Source: Minisyncoccota bacterium (GTDB lineage: Bacteria; Patescibacteriota; Minisyncoccia; JAHIHE01; JAGLIN01). From it: a DNA stretch of 39,626 bases. This document shows, in pieces, positions 793 to 11,271 of this stretch; positions within the stretch are counted from its first letter, which is position 1; each line of letters starts with the position of its first letter. A model generated the notes under the pieces. That model was not told the DNA's origin, searched no databases, and worked only from the letters and a program-made list of their open reading frames with translations. The translations under genes and the position numbers were made by a program. Location of the stretch: the NCBI GenBank assembly GCA_023143145.1, contig JAGLID010000045.1:1-39626 (forward strand), in the 5' to 3' direction.

Positions 793-1713
793 TTAAATCC
801 ATCGTCGTTTTATCAGAAGCCAAAGAAAAGCCACGGACATAAAGACAATTAATAGTATGACATACAAAAAAGCAAAAGGACTATTGCCAAGTGGCAAAGA
901 AACATTCATTCCATAAATACTAGAGATTATAGTAGGAATCGTCAGAACGATTGTCACAACTGTCAAAATCTTGATTACTCTATTAAGTTCGTTAGTTAGA
1001 ATTGTTGAATAGGCTTCTCTAATGTTCTTGATAGATTTAAGCGCAACTCGCGATATCTCAATCGTCTGTTTGCTGTCCATAAATAAATCTTCTATCTCAT
1101 TTTTATCTTTATCATATATTTTTATATATCTCCCGCTCAATATTCTTTCAAGATTACTGATAATCGGCACAATCGAAGATTCGAAGTCATTTAAAGTTTC
1201 CTCTTCTTGAACAAGGAAGAGAATATCTTTATTATTGAGATTATCAATTTTAATTTTCTTTATTTTAATATCCTTTAATATTCTGTTAAGATATTTATCA
1301 TAACTATTGAAAACTTCAGTTATAATCTTTAATAAAAGACTAGTCTTATGTGTCGTGGAAAAATACGGAAATTTCTTTACAAAATTATTAATAACACAAT
1401 TTTGCCCATTTGAGAGAGTAATTATATTATCTCTTGTAATAACCACAAGCAGAGGCAAAGTAATTATATCTACATCACTTTGAGTAGGAAAACGAATTAT
1501 CATATAAAAAATTCCATTTTTACTTTCTACCCTGGAAAGCTCATTCTCGTCCAAAGCATCTTCAATAATTGTTAAATCCAATTTTAATTCTTTTCCTAAT
1601 CTTTCTATTTCATCTATATCAGGCTCAATCACCGATATCCAGCTTCCTTTTTCAAATGTCTTAATTTTTTTTAATTTTAAATCCTTTAGCGTTTTCTTAT
1701 ATATATCAATCAT
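793..1713 (-). CDS. corA: CorA-family Mg2+/Co2+ transporter
   Basis: YGMN signature between two C-terminal TM helices; 306 aa. Confidence 0.92.
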   Translation of the reverse strand: MIDIYKKTLKDLKLKKIKTFEKGSWISVIEPDIDEIERLGKELKLDLTIIEDALDENELSRVESKNGIFYMIIRFPTQSDVDIITLPLLVVITRDNIITLSNGQNCVINNFVKKFPYFSTTHKTSLLLKIITEVFNSYDKYLNRILKDIKIKKIKIDNLNNKDILFLVQEEETLNDFESSIVPIISNLERILSGRYIKIYDKDKNEIEDLFMDSKQTIEISRVALKSIKNIREAYSTILTNELNRVIKILTVVTIVLTIPTIISSIYGMNVSLPLGNSPFAFLYVILLIVFMSVAFLWLLIKRRWI

Positions 1714-1765
1714 AAATATTGTTTAAAATTATAAAACTACTATAAGTCCACTAAATACTAAACAC

Positions 1766-2818
1766 TTAAAAATTATTTAAATTTGGAGAATCATGAAAAG
1801 CCTTTTTGGCCATATTCCAAATCCGATCATCATTTTTTTCAGTTTTTAACCAATACCACCATTCGCCTCCCCAAAGATAAGCCTCGGAAAACTCGATATC
1901 TTTCACATAATCAATATTTTTCTGAAACTGTTCTGGGTCCATTGACTTATATTGATCTTCTAAAGATGTTTCAATAATCATTTTCGGACCCCATGGTTCT
2001 CCTTGTAGTTCAACTATAACAATCTTATCGACACCAGTTAAAAACATAATAATCGCCGCTTTTAACCTATAAATCACAGAAGGAGTTGGATAATGAATAT
2101 AGCCAATGCTATCATTCCAAACAATTCTATAAAGAGTTGTACCTAGGATATCGGCTCTTTTTCCTGCACTATACCAAGTGCCGAGCTCGCCACTGTCTGA
2201 AATTATAATCGGGCGACTATCCAGTTCACGAACCGTAGCAATTTCTCTATCTAAAAATTTCTTATCCAATTTTGGACATTTCCCATATGGTAAAAATGGT
2301 TCGTTTTCAACCTGCCAATTCGTAATATTTTTTTTATCTTTATAACGATTTACAACTTCAGTAATATAATTTATTAATTCATTTTGCCTTTCTATTTCAT
2401 CTATTTCCATAGCCCATTGCGGAATATGACATTCTGGCCATCTTGGTTGTTTTTGACCCAAAGATAAAACAATTTCCACTCCTCTTTTTTCTGCTTCTTC
2501 AATTTGCCAATCCAAATCTTGATAGAAATATTCTCCTCTTATATTTTCAATTTCATTCCAATATGAAGGCAACCTTACCTTTTTTGCTCCCGCATCATCC
2601 ATAAGTGCAAGATATGTTTCTTTCCAATCAAGACCAAGATGTTGCGCGAAAGATTTGCTAAAAGTTACTCCATAGACAACTTTCATATTTTGTCTTGGCA
2701 TCAAAAGAACAACTATCGTAAAAGCCATGGAAAAAAATATAATAAATAATATTATATTCTTCTTGGTCAATAATTTCCTTTTAATTTTTTTATTCTTTGA
2801 GAATAAATTAAATTTCAT
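1766..2818 (-). CDS. Membrane-anchored clan GH-A glycoside hydrolase (GH5/GH42-like)
   Basis: N-terminal TM anchor; VRLPSYWNEIE, WQVENEP (acid/base) and IVELQGEPW (likely nucleophile) motifs. Confidence 0.75.
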   Translation of the reverse strand: MKFNLFSKNKKIKRKLLTKKNIILFIIFFSMAFTIVVLLMPRQNMKVVYGVTFSKSFAQHLGLDWKETYLALMDDAGAKKVRLPSYWNEIENIRGEYFYQDLDWQIEEAEKRGVEIVLSLGQKQPRWPECHIPQWAMEIDEIERQNELINYITEVVNRYKDKKNITNWQVENEPFLPYGKCPKLDKKFLDREIATVRELDSRPIIISDSGELGTWYSAGKRADILGTTLYRIVWNDSIGYIHYPTPSVIYRLKAAIIMFLTGVDKIVIVELQGEPWGPKMIIETSLEDQYKSMDPEQFQKNIDYVKDIEFSEAYLWGGEWWYWLKTEKNDDRIWNMAKKAFHDSPNLNNF

Positions 2819-2902
2819 AATTTTGATTTATTTATGTTTTTTGATTATTGACATAAGTTTAAATTTAAGTTATGTTTTTTGTAAGTCTAAATAAACGGAG
2901 AG

Positions 2903-3346
2903 ATGAGTTTGAACAATATTATTAAAAAAATATATAGTGAATTTAAACTTGGACTTAGAACAGGCATATCAAAAGGAGCACTTGTAACGATACTTGCTCT
3001 TCTTATGATAAATATGTGGTATATTCTACCTCCCATTAGCACTTCCGACTTTTTGGTAATAGCATTGATTTGGGCAATAATAGGATTTTTTACAACTTTA
3101 TCATTCTACGAATTGTCAGACTTTGATTACTCAAGAAACCTTGCTTTTTTAATGGGGTTAATCGCAACCGTTGTCTCAATGAGTTATATATATCATATGT
3201 TAACATGTGATATACTGCCATATAATTTATTAATGACAGATATATATGTAATATTTGTTCTAATAAGTTTAAGTTCAACTTTTGCTTTTTTTCTAAAAAT
3301 GAGAATGTTGAAAAAAGAGCAAAAGAAACTTCACAGTAGGACCTAA
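2903..3346 (+). CDS. Hypothetical membrane protein (about 4 TM)
   Basis: 147-aa hydrophobic ORF filling the gap between two minus-strand genes; GGAGAG before the ATG; TTGACA-17-TATGTT upstream. Confidence 0.7.
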   Translation: MSLNNIIKKIYSEFKLGLRTGISKGALVTILALLMINMWYILPPISTSDFLVIALIWAIIGFFTTLSFYELSDFDYSRNLAFLMGLIATVVSMSYIYHMLTCDILPYNLLMTDIYVIFVLISLSSTFAFFLKMRMLKKEQKKLHSRT

Positions 3347-3360
3347 CATTCCTACTTTTT

Positions 3361-7986: not shown

Positions 7987-8014
7987 ATTATAGCATATTG
8001 CTTTCAGATAACAA
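7987..8014 (-). promoter_or_regulatory. Promoter for the CYTH gene (and probably gatB-xseB)
   Basis: TTGTTA-16 nt-TATAAT with a TGn extension. Confidence 0.55.
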
Positions 8015-8045
8015 AAAAGGGTTAGAACTATTGCAAAGCCTAACC
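8013..8045 (-). terminator. Intrinsic terminator of the small transcript upstream
   Basis: GGTTAGGCT...AGTTCTAACC hairpin followed by CTTTTTT. Confidence 0.6.
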
Positions 8046-8110
8046 AAAAATTTGATTTTTTGAGATTTGCTAACCAGTGTACGCAGCTATGACGCACATA
8101 ATGAAACTGA

Positions 8111-8203
8111 TTAAGTTCTGATTTGTTCAGGCCTGTACACTACGTGGTGCACGTTGAGTCCAATGCAAATCATACTAGATATTTTATCTAGATTGCCCAA
8201 CAT
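8111..8203 (-). CDS. Candidate 30-aa small protein (or part of a structured sRNA)
   Basis: MLGNLDKISSMICIGLNVHHVVYRPEQIRT; GGAGGTGA SD; own TTGACA-16-TATGAT promoter at 8223-8250. Confidence 0.4.
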   Translation of the reverse strand: MLGNLDKISSMICIGLNVHHVVYRPEQIRT

Positions 8204-8410
8204 TTCTATCACCTCCATTATAATCATAAAGTTAAATAACAATCTGTCAAATAAATTATCTGCTACAGAAAAAGCTTTGCAAGATTAATGAATTTCAAAA
8301 ATATTGTGATATCTCTTGCTGACTTTCATCAGTACTCCATAACATTCAAATTCCTTAAAGCTAAAATAAATAAAAAACTACAGATAAAGTCACGATTAAA
8401 ACGCTAGACT

Positions 8411-8495: not shown

Positions 8496-10292
8496 CTAAA
8501 TTTTCTTCAATTTAACTCCCAGTTCATCCAGTTGCTCTTTTCTAACTGCGCTTGGACTATCCATCATCAAATCTCTTCCTTTCCCATCTTTTGGAAAGGC
8601 ATAGATGTCGCGAATCGAATCATAATCACAAAGAGTCATCAAAATTCGATCTACTCCAGGAGCACAACCACCATGAGGAGGTGCACCAAATTTCAAAGCC
8701 TTAATCATTCCGCCAAATTTAGCATCCACTTCTTCTTTCGTATATCCAGCAATTTCAAAAGCCTTATACATAATTTTTGGTTTATGATTTCTAATTCCGC
8801 CACTCAAACATTCAAATCCATTCAAAGATATATCAAATTGATTATTGATAATTTCAAGTGGGTCTTTTGATTCAAGTTCCTCAATCCCACCTCTGGGCAT
8901 TGAAAATGGATTATGTTCAAAATCAATTCGACCCTCTTCAATCTCAGAATAGGCAAACATTGGAAAATCAACTATCCAGCACCAAGCAGCCTTTGAATTA
9001 TCCTTAAGCCCAAGTCTTGTGGCACATTCATTTCGCACAGAACCCAAAGCCGAACAAACTGTTTTCCACTTATCTGCACCGAAAAATATAATATCACCAG
9101 AAACTGCTTCAACTTCGCTGGCAATCTCTTTCGTTAAATCATCACCAAGAAATTTCACAATTGGAGACTGAAATTCTCCACCTTCTTTGACAATAATATA
9201 TGCCAATCCTTTTGCCCCTTTTTCCTTGGCAATTTCCGTCAGCTCATCAATTTCTTTTCGAGAAAATTTTGCACCTCCGTCAATTTTCAAAGCATGAACT
9301 GCGCCGCCCTTTTCGACTGTGTCAGAAAAAACACTAAACCCACAACCTTTTATCAAATCTGAAATTGGTTTGATTTCCAAGTCAAAACGTAAATCTGGTT
9401 TGTCCGAGCCATATCTTTCTAATGCTTCTCTCCATGGAATTCTTTGGAAGCTTTTATCCTCATTAAGTGCAACAATTTTCTTTTTACTAAATTTTTCAGT
9501 GATTTCAACAAACAAAGGTTCCATAATCTCAAAAATATCATCTTGCTCCACAAAACTCATTTCCATATCAATCTGATAGAATTCTCCATAGGCCCTATCC
9601 ATTCGTGGATCTTCATCACGAAAACAAGGTGCAATCTGAAAATATTTATCAAGTCCTCCAACCATCAGAAGTTGTTTGAATTGTTGAGGAGCTTGAGGAA
9701 GAGCATAAAACTTTCCTGGGTGAATCCTAGAAGGAATCAAAAAGTCTCTTGCTCCCTCTGGAGAAGAATTGGCCAAAATTGGTGTTTGAACTTCAATAAA
9801 ATCTCTCGTTTGAAAATAATTTCTTACATGTTGAAATAATTGATCTTTAATCTTTAACATTTCCTGCATTTTCTTTCTACGTAAATCAAGAAATCTATAT
9901 TCCAAACGAATTAACTCATTCGCCTCCTGGCCTTTTTCATCATTAATTTCAAAAGGAGGAGTCTCTGATTCCGACAAGACTTCAATTTCATCCGCCTCAA
10001 CTTCGATCTCGCCAGTTCCAAGTTTTGAATTGATCATACCATTAGGTCTTGAAATTACCGTTCCTGTAATTCTGATCACATATTCGGTTCGAATTTTGTC
10101 AGCAGTTTCCCACGCCGATTTTGACACCTCTGGATCAAATGTAATTTGAGTAATTCCATATCGGTCACGCAAATCGATAAAAATCAATCCACCGTGATCT
10201 CTTCTGGAATTCACCCATCCCGATAAAATAACTTCTTGATTTTCTTCTTTTTTTGATAACACTCCGCAAGTATGAGTTCTATATTGTTGCAT
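8496..10292 (-). CDS. aspS: Aspartate--tRNA(Asp/Asn) ligase, non-discriminating type
   Basis: YRTHTCG, RRDHGG (His typical of ND-AspRS), ALPQAPQQFKQLLM, CFRDED and GAPPHGG. Confidence 0.97.
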   Translation of the reverse strand: MQQYRTHTCGVLSKKEENQEVILSGWVNSRRDHGGLIFIDLRDRYGITQITFDPEVSKSAWETADKIRTEYVIRITGTVISRPNGMINSKLGTGEIEVEADEIEVLSESETPPFEINDEKGQEANELIRLEYRFLDLRRKKMQEMLKIKDQLFQHVRNYFQTRDFIEVQTPILANSSPEGARDFLIPSRIHPGKFYALPQAPQQFKQLLMVGGLDKYFQIAPCFRDEDPRMDRAYGEFYQIDMEMSFVEQDDIFEIMEPLFVEITEKFSKKKIVALNEDKSFQRIPWREALERYGSDKPDLRFDLEIKPISDLIKGCGFSVFSDTVEKGGAVHALKIDGGAKFSRKEIDELTEIAKEKGAKGLAYIIVKEGGEFQSPIVKFLGDDLTKEIASEVEAVSGDIIFFGADKWKTVCSALGSVRNECATRLGLKDNSKAAWCWIVDFPMFAYSEIEEGRIDFEHNPFSMPRGGIEELESKDPLEIINNQFDISLNGFECLSGGIRNHKPKIMYKAFEIAGYTKEEVDAKFGGMIKALKFGAPPHGGCAPGVDRILMTLCDYDSIRDIYAFPKDGKGRDLMMDSPSAVRKEQLDELGVKLKKI

Positions 10293-10327
10293 AATTTTTC
10301 TGATTAAAAAATAAATTAGACTTCACG

Positions 10328-10375
10328 CATTTTAGAAACCTAGCTCCGAAGCTTCGGAGCTAAGTTCCTAAAATG
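10328..10375. repeat. REP-like palindrome
   Basis: Perfect 22-bp palindrome TAGCTCCGAAGCTTCGGAGCTA (10341-10362) extended by 13-bp imperfect arms. Confidence 0.7.
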
Positions 10376-10382
10376 TTCATAT

Positions 10383-10445
10383 AACAAAAACTCCGTTCTT
10401 ATTTAATAAGTGAAAAACAAACTCATTAAATAAGAGCGAAGTTTT
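10383..10445 (-). terminator. Leader terminator/attenuator upstream of aspS
   Basis: 25-bp stem (10445-10421 with 10411-10387; 2 G-U pairs, 1 mismatch) ending in TTTTTGTT; lies between the promoter and aspS. Confidence 0.7.
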
Positions 10446-10497
10446 ATTGATTATTATTATCTAAGTAATTAATTCTCATATTTTTTGCCATTTTCAT
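10444..10497 (-). CDS. Putative aspS leader peptide
   Basis: MKMAKNMRINYLDNNNQ*; ends GAT AAT AAT AAT CAA TAA, with the stop overlapping the terminator's 5' arm. Confidence 0.55.
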   Translation of the reverse strand: MKMAKNMRINYLDNNNQ

Positions 10498-10508
10498 TAA
10501 CTATATAC

Positions 10509-10536
10509 ATAATAACAAAGATATAAAAAAAGTCAA
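10509..10536 (-). promoter_or_regulatory. aspS promoter
   Basis: TTGACT-16 nt-TATTAT with a TGn extension. Confidence 0.6.
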
Positions 10537-10626
10537 AGAAAAACACACAGCCTACATCTTTTCAACGTATCTATCCCTGATAAACTCAATCCATTTATAA
10601 TCACGATCATTATTGATTTAAGTAAA

Positions 10627-10665
10627 TAAAAAAAGAAGCAGAGCCTATATTGGCTAGGCTACTGC
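10627..10665 (-). terminator. Terminator after the multiheme gene
   Basis: GCAG-TAGCCTA...TAGGCT-CTGC hairpin followed by TTCTTTTTTT. Confidence 0.6.
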
Positions 10666-10671
10666 ATTTGT

Positions 10672-11271
10672 TTAGTGGCAAATTCTACACTCACCACTAT
10701 GTTCTCCTCCAGGTCCCTTTCCTGGATTGTCATCATGATGAGATCCATGACAATCATCACAATTTTTATGAAGACTTGTTCCGTGACAAGCTCCACAGTT
10801 TTCCTGATGTATTCCAGAATATCTACTATGGCAAACTATACAACTCCTTTCAGTCGGAGCTGGACTCCCTTTATGGCAAAAAGGATTTATACAGCTGTAT
10901 TCATCAAGAATATCTTTATTATGATGAATCTCTTTTCCATCATGACAGTATTGACATTCATTATGAATGTTTCTGTTCGCTCCGTGACAATCCTCACATT
11001 CACTATGAATGCTTTTTCTACTTCCATGACAATCATCACAATCTTCGTGAAGGCTCGCTATGTGGCAATCTAGGCAATCCTTCTCCATATTATGAGGATT
11101 ACCAACGTCATCTTTGCCAGATTCAACATTACTGCCACTGTTTCCAGTGTCATCAGAACCACTAGGTCCAGGTCCTCTGGAATCACCTTTGCCAGCATCA
11201 ACCGAAACTATGGCAGTCAAGACCAATGACATTAGCACTAGACAAACAATCATTTTTCTATTCATACCCAT
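10672..11271 (-). CDS. Secreted multiheme cytochrome c-like protein
   Basis: Signal peptide; 8 CxxCH plus CINPFCH; extra His just before most motifs; G/P/S-rich linker. Confidence 0.8.
   Translation of the reverse strand: MGMNRKMIVCLVLMSLVLTAIVSVDAGKGDSRGPGPSGSDDTGNSGSNVESGKDDVGNPHNMEKDCLDCHIASLHEDCDDCHGSRKSIHSECEDCHGANRNIHNECQYCHDGKEIHHNKDILDEYSCINPFCHKGSPAPTERSCIVCHSRYSGIHQENCGACHGTSLHKNCDDCHGSHHDDNPGKGPGGEHSGECRICH

Follow-up and report, generated by a model that had tools for sequence, protein, structure and literature searches.

The DNA analysed here, referred to as the window, is a stretch of 39,626 nucleotides (nt), positions 1 to 39,626 on the forward strand of contig JAGLID010000045.1 of assembly GCA_023143145.1, which derives from a Minisyncoccota genome of about 32% G+C. 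The gene for aspartyl-tRNA synthetase (AspRS), aspS, is preceded there by a leader that carries a promoter, a small open reading frame (ORF) rich in asparagine (Asn) and aspartate (Asp) codons and an intrinsic terminator, and this leader, a candidate attenuator of aspS, is the subject of the present analysis. All leader elements lie on the minus strand (Table 1). An initial annotation, made from the letters of the window, had listed promoter, upstream ORF, terminator and aspS in this order, and all four were located as claimed. The identity of aspS was established with the NCBIfam aspartate--tRNA ligase model (798 bits vs a cut-off of 443).

Table 1. Features of the aspS locus and its surroundings in the window.
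Feature	Positions	Strand	Details
argS	13172-11427	minus	
Gene for a 199-amino-acid protein without family match	11271-10672	minus	ends in its own terminator-like hairpin
Terminator-like hairpin and T-run closing the 199-amino-acid gene	10630..10660	minus	stem 10660-10642, then CTGCTTCTTT
Sigma-70-type promoter	10509..10536	minus	TTGACT 10536-10531, 16-nt spacer, extended -10 TG-n-TATTAT 10517-10509
Leader ORF	10444..10497	minus	in-frame ATGs at 10497, 10491 and 10479; stop TAA 10446-10444
Control codons GAT AAT AAT AAT (Asp Asn Asn Asn)	10450..10461	minus	
Intrinsic terminator	10386..10444	minus	5' arm 10444-10421, loop 10420-10412, 3' arm 10411-10388, U-tract 10390-10386
Second hairpin, perfect palindrome	10327..10376	strand-neutral	copy of a dispersed repeat
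aspS	8496..10292	minus	bacterial-type AspRS with GAD domain
CYTH / class IV adenylate-cyclase-like gene	8097-7417	minus	TIGR00318, 61.8 bits vs cut-off 57.95
gatB	7438-5930	minus	

The promoter matches the consensus at 10 of 12 positions, has the TG element and places the predicted transcript start at about 10502. The terminator-like hairpin that closes the upstream gene appears to set the aspS leader apart as a separate transcription unit. The 231-nt leader folds at -67.8 kcal/mol, compared with a shuffle mean of -35.6 (z = -8.45). Read from its first ATG, the leader peptide is MKMAKNMRINYLDNNNQ, with five Asn and one Asp in 17 codons and the ending ...DNNNQ*; this composition, the DNNN near the stop and the three in-frame ATGs agree with the initial annotation. 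The start itself is probably to be placed elsewhere, at the third ATG, with which the ATG or GTG starts of relatives line up; the peptide then reads MRINYLDNNNQ (11 codons). The hairpin that follows had been described as a 25-bp terminator with its 5' arm over the stop codon. Hairpin and overlap are both present, but the stem has 23 pairs, followed by UUUUUGUU, and the pairs that overlap the stop codon are only A-U pairs formed with the U-tract; the first strong pair, a C-G between 10441 and 10391, lies 5 nt past the T of the stop codon.

To place this leader in context, aspS was taken from 40 relatives and the upstream DNA was read for 22 bacterial-type orthologs, host included. A two-part element, consisting of a small ORF that ends in Asn/Asp codons and a homologous hairpin with U-tract directly 3' of it, is shared by 13 of these 22 loci, and TTGAC-type promoters, judged by eye, precede all 13 leaders. 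A covariance model (R1) built from the 13 leaders gave a single match, invariably 5' of aspS, in each of 13 genomes out of the 24 in the family, representing 9 of its 15 genera; eight genomes of other families in the same order gave no match. In 148 further genomes of the class, searched with stricter filters, the model returned one match of 38 bits, which was rejected as an unrelated terminator. A search with the exact upper-stem pattern extended the set: in a collection of species genomes, 11 of 20 matches were aspS leaders, coming from the Patescibacteria group, Candidatus Paceibacterota and similar taxa, and among metagenome contigs 10 of 22 were. The other 12 metagenome matches and nine species-genome matches were not aspS leaders; six of these nine fall at one locus labelled Bacilli/Tenericutes, where no T-run follows and the flanks, which were not translated, look coding, and the remaining ones are another Bacilli site, one in Pedobacter and one in Parafilimonas. 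The 13 family genomes and 10 metagenome contigs together yield 19 distinct sequence variants.

In a tree of AspRS, both branches of the deepest split, which is fully supported, include carriers of the element, and this distribution requires at least three gains or losses, or six by parsimony. The AspRS proteins of the family fall into two clades of about 54% identity, and the neighbouring ArgRS proteins show 64-79% (partial alignments). The AspRS tree may thus not equal the species tree; xenologous replacement or fast aspS evolution in one clade are possible causes of the split.

The codon pattern of the small ORF is conserved beyond the window. All 19 variants have an ORF of 7-13 codons that starts with ATG or GTG and ends in an in-frame stop codon. 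Asn and Asp make up 87 of their 211 codons (AAT 55, AAC 13, GAT 17, GAC 2), to be compared with 11.6% Asn plus Asp in the 511 long ORFs of the host genome. Each variant keeps three to six such codons near the end of the ORF. Within the run, the variants differ almost exclusively by T/C exchanges at the third codon position, A/G exchanges at the first (Asn to Asp) and insertions or deletions of whole codons, and the run is rarely interrupted by other codons (AGT, ATC and GAA, one each). At loci L018, L021 and L025 the 5' arm is identical, and the runs differ yet remain Asn/Asp. Asn is found in all variants, while Asp is absent from some (L011, L084, L087, L091); examples of the leader peptides are MKIIRLDDNNNQ, MIVDYLKNDNNQ, MFYQKNNNDNNQ, MEFRNDNNNRF, MVFSWNNNNNRS and MESQRNNN. 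The prediction that relatives would retain an Asn/Asp run, showing AAT/AAC and GAT/GAC exchanges and set at a nearly constant spacing from a conserved terminator, is thereby borne out. The initial annotation had also cautioned that AAT runs arise easily, rightly so: at least four Asn/Asp in five codons occur in 31 of 9332 short intergenic ORFs of the host genome, so that in AT-rich DNA of this kind a single sequence alone is weak evidence. The comparative data nonetheless show the run to be more than chance. When 17 aspS leaders without the hairpin (nine from the family, eight from the class) were scanned for small ORFs with at least three Asn/Asp in five codons, three were obtained, each with exactly three in five; one continues into aspS, and none stands beside such a hairpin.

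The hairpin is equally well preserved. RNAalifold on 13 sequences returned 23 pairs, five of them with compensatory changes, and in the 19 distinct sequences 99.8% of 437 cells are paired, with four pairs (25 cells) changed on both sides, in an alignment fitted to the covariance model, which favours structure. None of 500 shuffles equalled these values, and the pairing level of slid controls was 43-61%. In the variants the stem is followed by four to six U; the loop is U-rich and varies in sequence and length. Hairpin and U-tract together are, on this comparative evidence, a conserved intrinsic terminator.

A scan of the host genome for short ORFs abutting terminators yielded 411 hairpin-plus-T-run candidates and 108 ORF/terminator pairs. 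By free energy the aspS hairpin ranks 12th of the 411; the candidates are mostly long imperfect A/U hairpins (median 19 pairs), so a comparison by hairpin length is uninformative. The leader hairpins are not repeated within the host genome. Of the upstream ORFs adjoining candidates, none but that of aspS has a codon run that is not hydrophobic, and no second attenuator was found among the 108 pairs. Other run-bearing ORFs were Leu- or Ile-rich and most were TTG-started; the two inspected (C87, C93) lie in coding-like sequence. Within the window, argS has no similar leader, being preceded by an ORF of 90 amino acids, a terminator and a promoter.

The leaders were also searched for a competing structure. 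When all 19 were folded up to the loop, without the 3' arm, the energies were no better than those of mononucleotide shuffles and no helix was shared, and RNAalifold on 124-nt leaders, from promoter to U-tract, gave the terminator as the only conserved helix. The gap of 4-5 nt between stop and stem leaves no room for a classical segment 2. The suggestion that no separate antiterminator is needed is in line with these results. A T-box (RF00230), which the initial annotation had not seen either, was matched neither at Rfam gathering scores in the window nor at E up to 10 over 10150-10750. The only Rfam family reached at gathering scores in the window is tRNA-Lys. At E up to 10 the leader gave hairpin-shaped noise only, namely microRNA precursors and Phe_leader, the latter at 10334-10449 with 22 bits and E = 0.29, below its gathering score of 55.

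The gene content of the family explains why Asn codons could be informative for aspS. AsnRS (TIGR00457) was above cut-off in 6 of 14 control genomes but in none of the 24 genomes of the family, and in the host genome PF00152 is found only in AspRS and LysRS, both class IIb enzymes. GatA and GatB are present in the host genome; across the 22 loci, gatB lies downstream of aspS in 17 and argS upstream in 17. With GatA and GatB present and no AsnRS, AspRS plus GatCAB must make Asn-tRNA(Asn), and Asn codons would therefore report AspRS output. AspRS is, judging by this gene content, probably non-discriminating, which fits the earlier assignment.

The spacing between codons and hairpin is narrow. 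Across the 19 variants, the last Asn/Asp codon stands 7-17 nt (median 13) away from the stem base and the first codon of the terminal run 16-25 nt. Stop codon and first strong pair are 4-5 nt apart in 17 variants and 11 nt apart in two, and the U-tract ends 58-68 nt past the stop codon. In the window, the last Asn codon begins 11 nt before the first strong stem pair. The codon-to-stem distances hold where the stop shifts (L091, NNN*; L011, NNNN*). As reported by Li et al. (2016; PMC4824070), moving a stop codon in E. coli from 28 to 5 bp before the tR2 terminator lowered termination from about 90% to below 10%; at 17-18 bp the efficiency ranged from 0.12 to 0.8, and repression had faded by about 30 bp, with full termination beyond. 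The authors argue that the last pairs can close only if at least 10-15 nt of RNA are free between A site and hairpin. The run-to-stem distances of the aspS leaders fall within this E. coli blocking range, so a ribosome on the run could block hairpin closure.

We propose that the leader is likely a ribosome-mediated attenuator of aspS that reads the supply of Asn- and Asp-tRNA, the terminator being blocked by the stalled ribosome itself. That it is a leader-peptide attenuator of some wiring is highly probable; direct occlusion, if it is one, seems a reasonably good expectation. The main signal would be how much Asn-tRNA(Asn) is available, with Asp-tRNA(Asp) in second place. Transcription would start from the promoter at 10536-10509, and the leader of 11 codons (17 if the first ATG is used) would be translated while the polymerase crosses the 59-nt hairpin. 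If the polymerase reaches the U-tract at a moment when the end of the ORF is free of ribosomes, either because the ORF is untranslated or because it was translated fast and the ribosome has gone, the hairpin would close and transcription would stop about 90 nt before aspS; the stretch of 58-68 nt would give an unhindered ribosome the time to terminate and leave. A ribosome held on the Asp/Asn codons, 7-25 nt from the stem base, would keep the last pairs next to the U-tract open and permit read-through into aspS, acting as the antiterminator in place of a helix. The initial annotation had a ribosome stalled on DNNN mask the 5' arm. Literal masking would apply only at the final one or two control codons; at the earlier ones the block would have to be steric, for which E. 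coli data give support (PMC4824070). At loci with a short spacer, the U-tract is 40-50 nt from the aspS ATG and no usable promoter was seen by eye in this gap, so aspS there depends on read-through. Since the stretch from aspS to the CYTH-gatB genes contains promoter-like and terminator-like sites in the window, control is claimed for aspS only.

A number of observations weigh against this proposal. The element is missing from 11 of the 24 family genomes; it is patchy and, on this distribution, dispensable. Because these leaders share ancestry, their number overstates how many independent cases there are. The terminator would be blocked no less effectively by a ribosome standing at the stop codon, at 4-5 nt from the stem, than by one on the run, in which case regulation would hang on a kinetic race between ribosome release and polymerase transit, while a ribosome on the first codon of the run (16-25 nt) may block only in part, given the spread of termination at 17-18 bp in E. 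coli (PMC4824070). The 5' strand of the upper stem is invariant across the 19 sequences, which exceeds what a plain terminator needs and is unexplained by occlusion. The start codon is ambiguous in the window, with three ATGs in frame, and no Shine-Dalgarno (SD) sequence precedes the leader ORF there. SD-like motifs are, however, not enriched before the long ORFs of the host genome (29 of 511 at -18 to -4, compared with 32 of 511 in a control region), in a test that took the first ATG as the start and was blurred by this; the missing leader SD is thus uninformative either way, and initiation in this genome is suggested to be largely SD-independent. Lastly, no tRNA-Asn gene was found among the 35 tRNAs of the assembly, which is 92% complete.

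Other explanations of the same anatomy were considered. The leader might be a classical four-segment attenuator of the trp, his or pheST type whose antiterminator helix has escaped recognition. To our knowledge, every well-studied codon-sensing leader peptide uses a 2:3 antiterminator, and besides this precedent, the invariant 5' strand of the upper stem could reflect two pairing partners and the weak Phe_leader match points the same way. Against these stand the 19 leaders without a 3' arm, whose energies lie at or above shuffle means and which share no helix, the RNAalifold result with the terminator only, the variable loop and the missing room for segment 2, and we regard a hidden helix as unlikely. 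About equally improbable is a control that does not depend on translation, in which the hairpin, perhaps with the A-rich run, is bound by a protein such as AspRS or by tRNA and the small ORF is incidental. Autoregulation of aminoacyl-tRNA synthetases by leader binding is known, ThrRS binding its own thrS leader, and this precedent, the upper-stem sequence that is invariant beyond the need for pairing, and the arms, which as a DNA inverted repeat could be an operator, would suit such binding. The run, however, changes codon by codon while keeping Asn/Asp, start codon and in-frame stop are kept in 19 of 19 variants, and conservation does not extend to the loop, the expected place of an anticodon mimic; nor was a T-box found.

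The logic of the leader could also be reversed, with a ribosome at the stop blocking the terminator and stalling on Asn/Asp letting termination proceed, such that aspS would follow overall translation capacity. The stop is indeed nearer to the stem than any control codon, at distances where repression in E. coli was strongest (PMC4824070). AspRS would then be lowered when Asp- or Asn-tRNA is short, an anti-homeostatic, runaway loop, and why the kept codons match the products of the enzyme itself would be left unexplained; moreover, in L091 and L011 the stop shifts while the distance from run to stem is kept. We consider the reversal very unlikely. Most improbable of all is an independent gene for a small RNA or small protein, or a chance AAT run beside an ordinary terminator, without control of aspS in cis. 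Asn/Asp-rich short ORFs do occur elsewhere in the host genome, as counted above, and terminated leaders can act as small RNAs, but in all 13 genomes and 10 contigs that carry it the element stands before aspS, short-spacer loci show no usable promoter after the terminator, and the non-hydrophobic run is the sole one in the host-genome scan.

The E. coli pheST (pheM) attenuator and the classical trp, his, leu, thr and ilv attenuators consist of a leader ORF with cognate codons followed by an intrinsic terminator. The aspS leader resembles these systems in its promoter-proximal short ORF, its cognate codons, its terminator and, as proposed here, in that a starved ribosome would lead to read-through, and pheST is a precedent for an aminoacyl-tRNA synthetase under leader-peptide control. 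Unlike them, it has no antiterminator or pause hairpin that we could find, its stop abuts the terminator, and Asn/Asp would be sensed with aspS as the target; no sequence relation to pheST exists, the Phe_leader match being below threshold. We therefore file the aspS leader as one that would work like leader-peptide attenuators but is not a classical member, since no 2:3 antiterminator was found. In pyrBI and pyrE, the signal is polymerase speed with UTP-sensitive pausing and not codon starvation. The aspS leader differs from these in that a cognate codon run is the evident sensor and in a much longer hairpin (23 bp), and the conserved cognate codons point to tRNA sensing instead of nucleotide-sensitive pausing. 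It is like pyrBI/pyrE of E. coli, and like the general repression of terminators there (PMC4824070), in that a ribosome close behind the hairpin would block closure without an alternative helix, and its stop-to-hairpin distance matches the strongly repressed range of tR2. With the T-box riboswitches upstream of aspS and hisS-aspS in Firmicutes, the leader would share the gene and the purpose, uncharged tRNA raising the synthetase by way of a terminator; unlike in the T-box, the sensor would be a translated ORF and not tRNA binding, and no T-box match was obtained.

Leader-peptide attenuation is textbook knowledge, but the documented cases concern a small number of amino acids and come mostly from Proteobacteria and Actinobacteria. 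A full-text literature search, in which few subscription journals were covered, returned no account of a leader peptide with Asn/Asp codons, of one before aspS, or of attenuation in Patescibacteria, also known as the Candidate Phyla Radiation (CPR), in keeping with the initial annotation, which knew of none for aspS in CPR. The 5' untranslated region of a Shewanella aspS is listed in PMC2659441 only as a "tRNA synthetase leader" with a predicted terminator, and no leader peptide is given there. As a broader and more tentative idea, the element may be a minimal two-part attenuator that needs no antiterminator RNA, in which the ribosome, 7-25 nt behind the hairpin, serves as the antiterminator and the 60-nt hairpin as a delay line, and by which Patescibacteria without AsnRS might tune AspRS to the charging of tRNA-Asn, the end product of a two-step indirect pathway. 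If this is true, reduced genomes retain homeostatic control of a synthetase that serves two tRNAs, and a natural sensor is reduced to an ORF plus a terminator, which would inform on the ribosome proximity needed to stop hairpin closure and would be useful as a very compact synthetic part. As far as we know, members of the CPR cannot be grown alone, and their gene regulation is almost unknown.

Between terminator and aspS, the window holds the second hairpin, a perfect 50-nt palindrome that is single-copy in the host genome. It matches several contigs each in relatives G005 and G006 and two contigs each in G009 and G010, and it is absent from the other 12 attenuator loci; in G009, a copy is found at the same place before an aspS without the attenuator. 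The second hairpin is, by this comparison, a copy of a dispersed palindromic repeat and lies outside the attenuator. Other palindromic inserts, of the type gtcattctgaa...ttcagaatgac, lengthen the aspS leader to 250-370 nt at loci L016, L017, L018, L020, L021 and L025; they resemble repetitive extragenic palindromes (REP) or miniature inverted-repeat transposable elements (MITE) and seem to favour the spot between leader or promoter and aspS. The gap between argS and the aspS promoter in L007, L008, L011, L014 and L017 holds recurring hairpins with C-rich loops, preceded by promoters, of the type CCCCCACCCCCACTC. These hairpins of relatives, which are not present in the window, reached no Rfam family at gathering scores and may represent an undescribed small RNA.

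Downstream of aspS, the CYTH / class IV adenylate-cyclase-like gene sits between aspS and gatB in 8 of the 22 loci (the window, L005, L006, L007, L010, L013, L014 and L021). The gap between aspS and this gene in the window, at about 8010-8250 of the minus strand, may contain a small transcription unit: a promoter at 8250-8223 (TTGACA, 16-nt spacer, TATGAT), the best promoter match of the region, is followed by a strong GGAGGTG motif before an ORF of about 30 codons (ATG near 8202) and by a hairpin with T-run near 8045-8010. Such an SD-like motif is odd for a genome without SD enrichment. Elsewhere in the host genome, LysRS (contig C108, about 1208-3358, minus strand) has a C-terminal extension of about 220 amino acids with an HDIG-domain match (31.7 bits vs a cut-off of 27.6).

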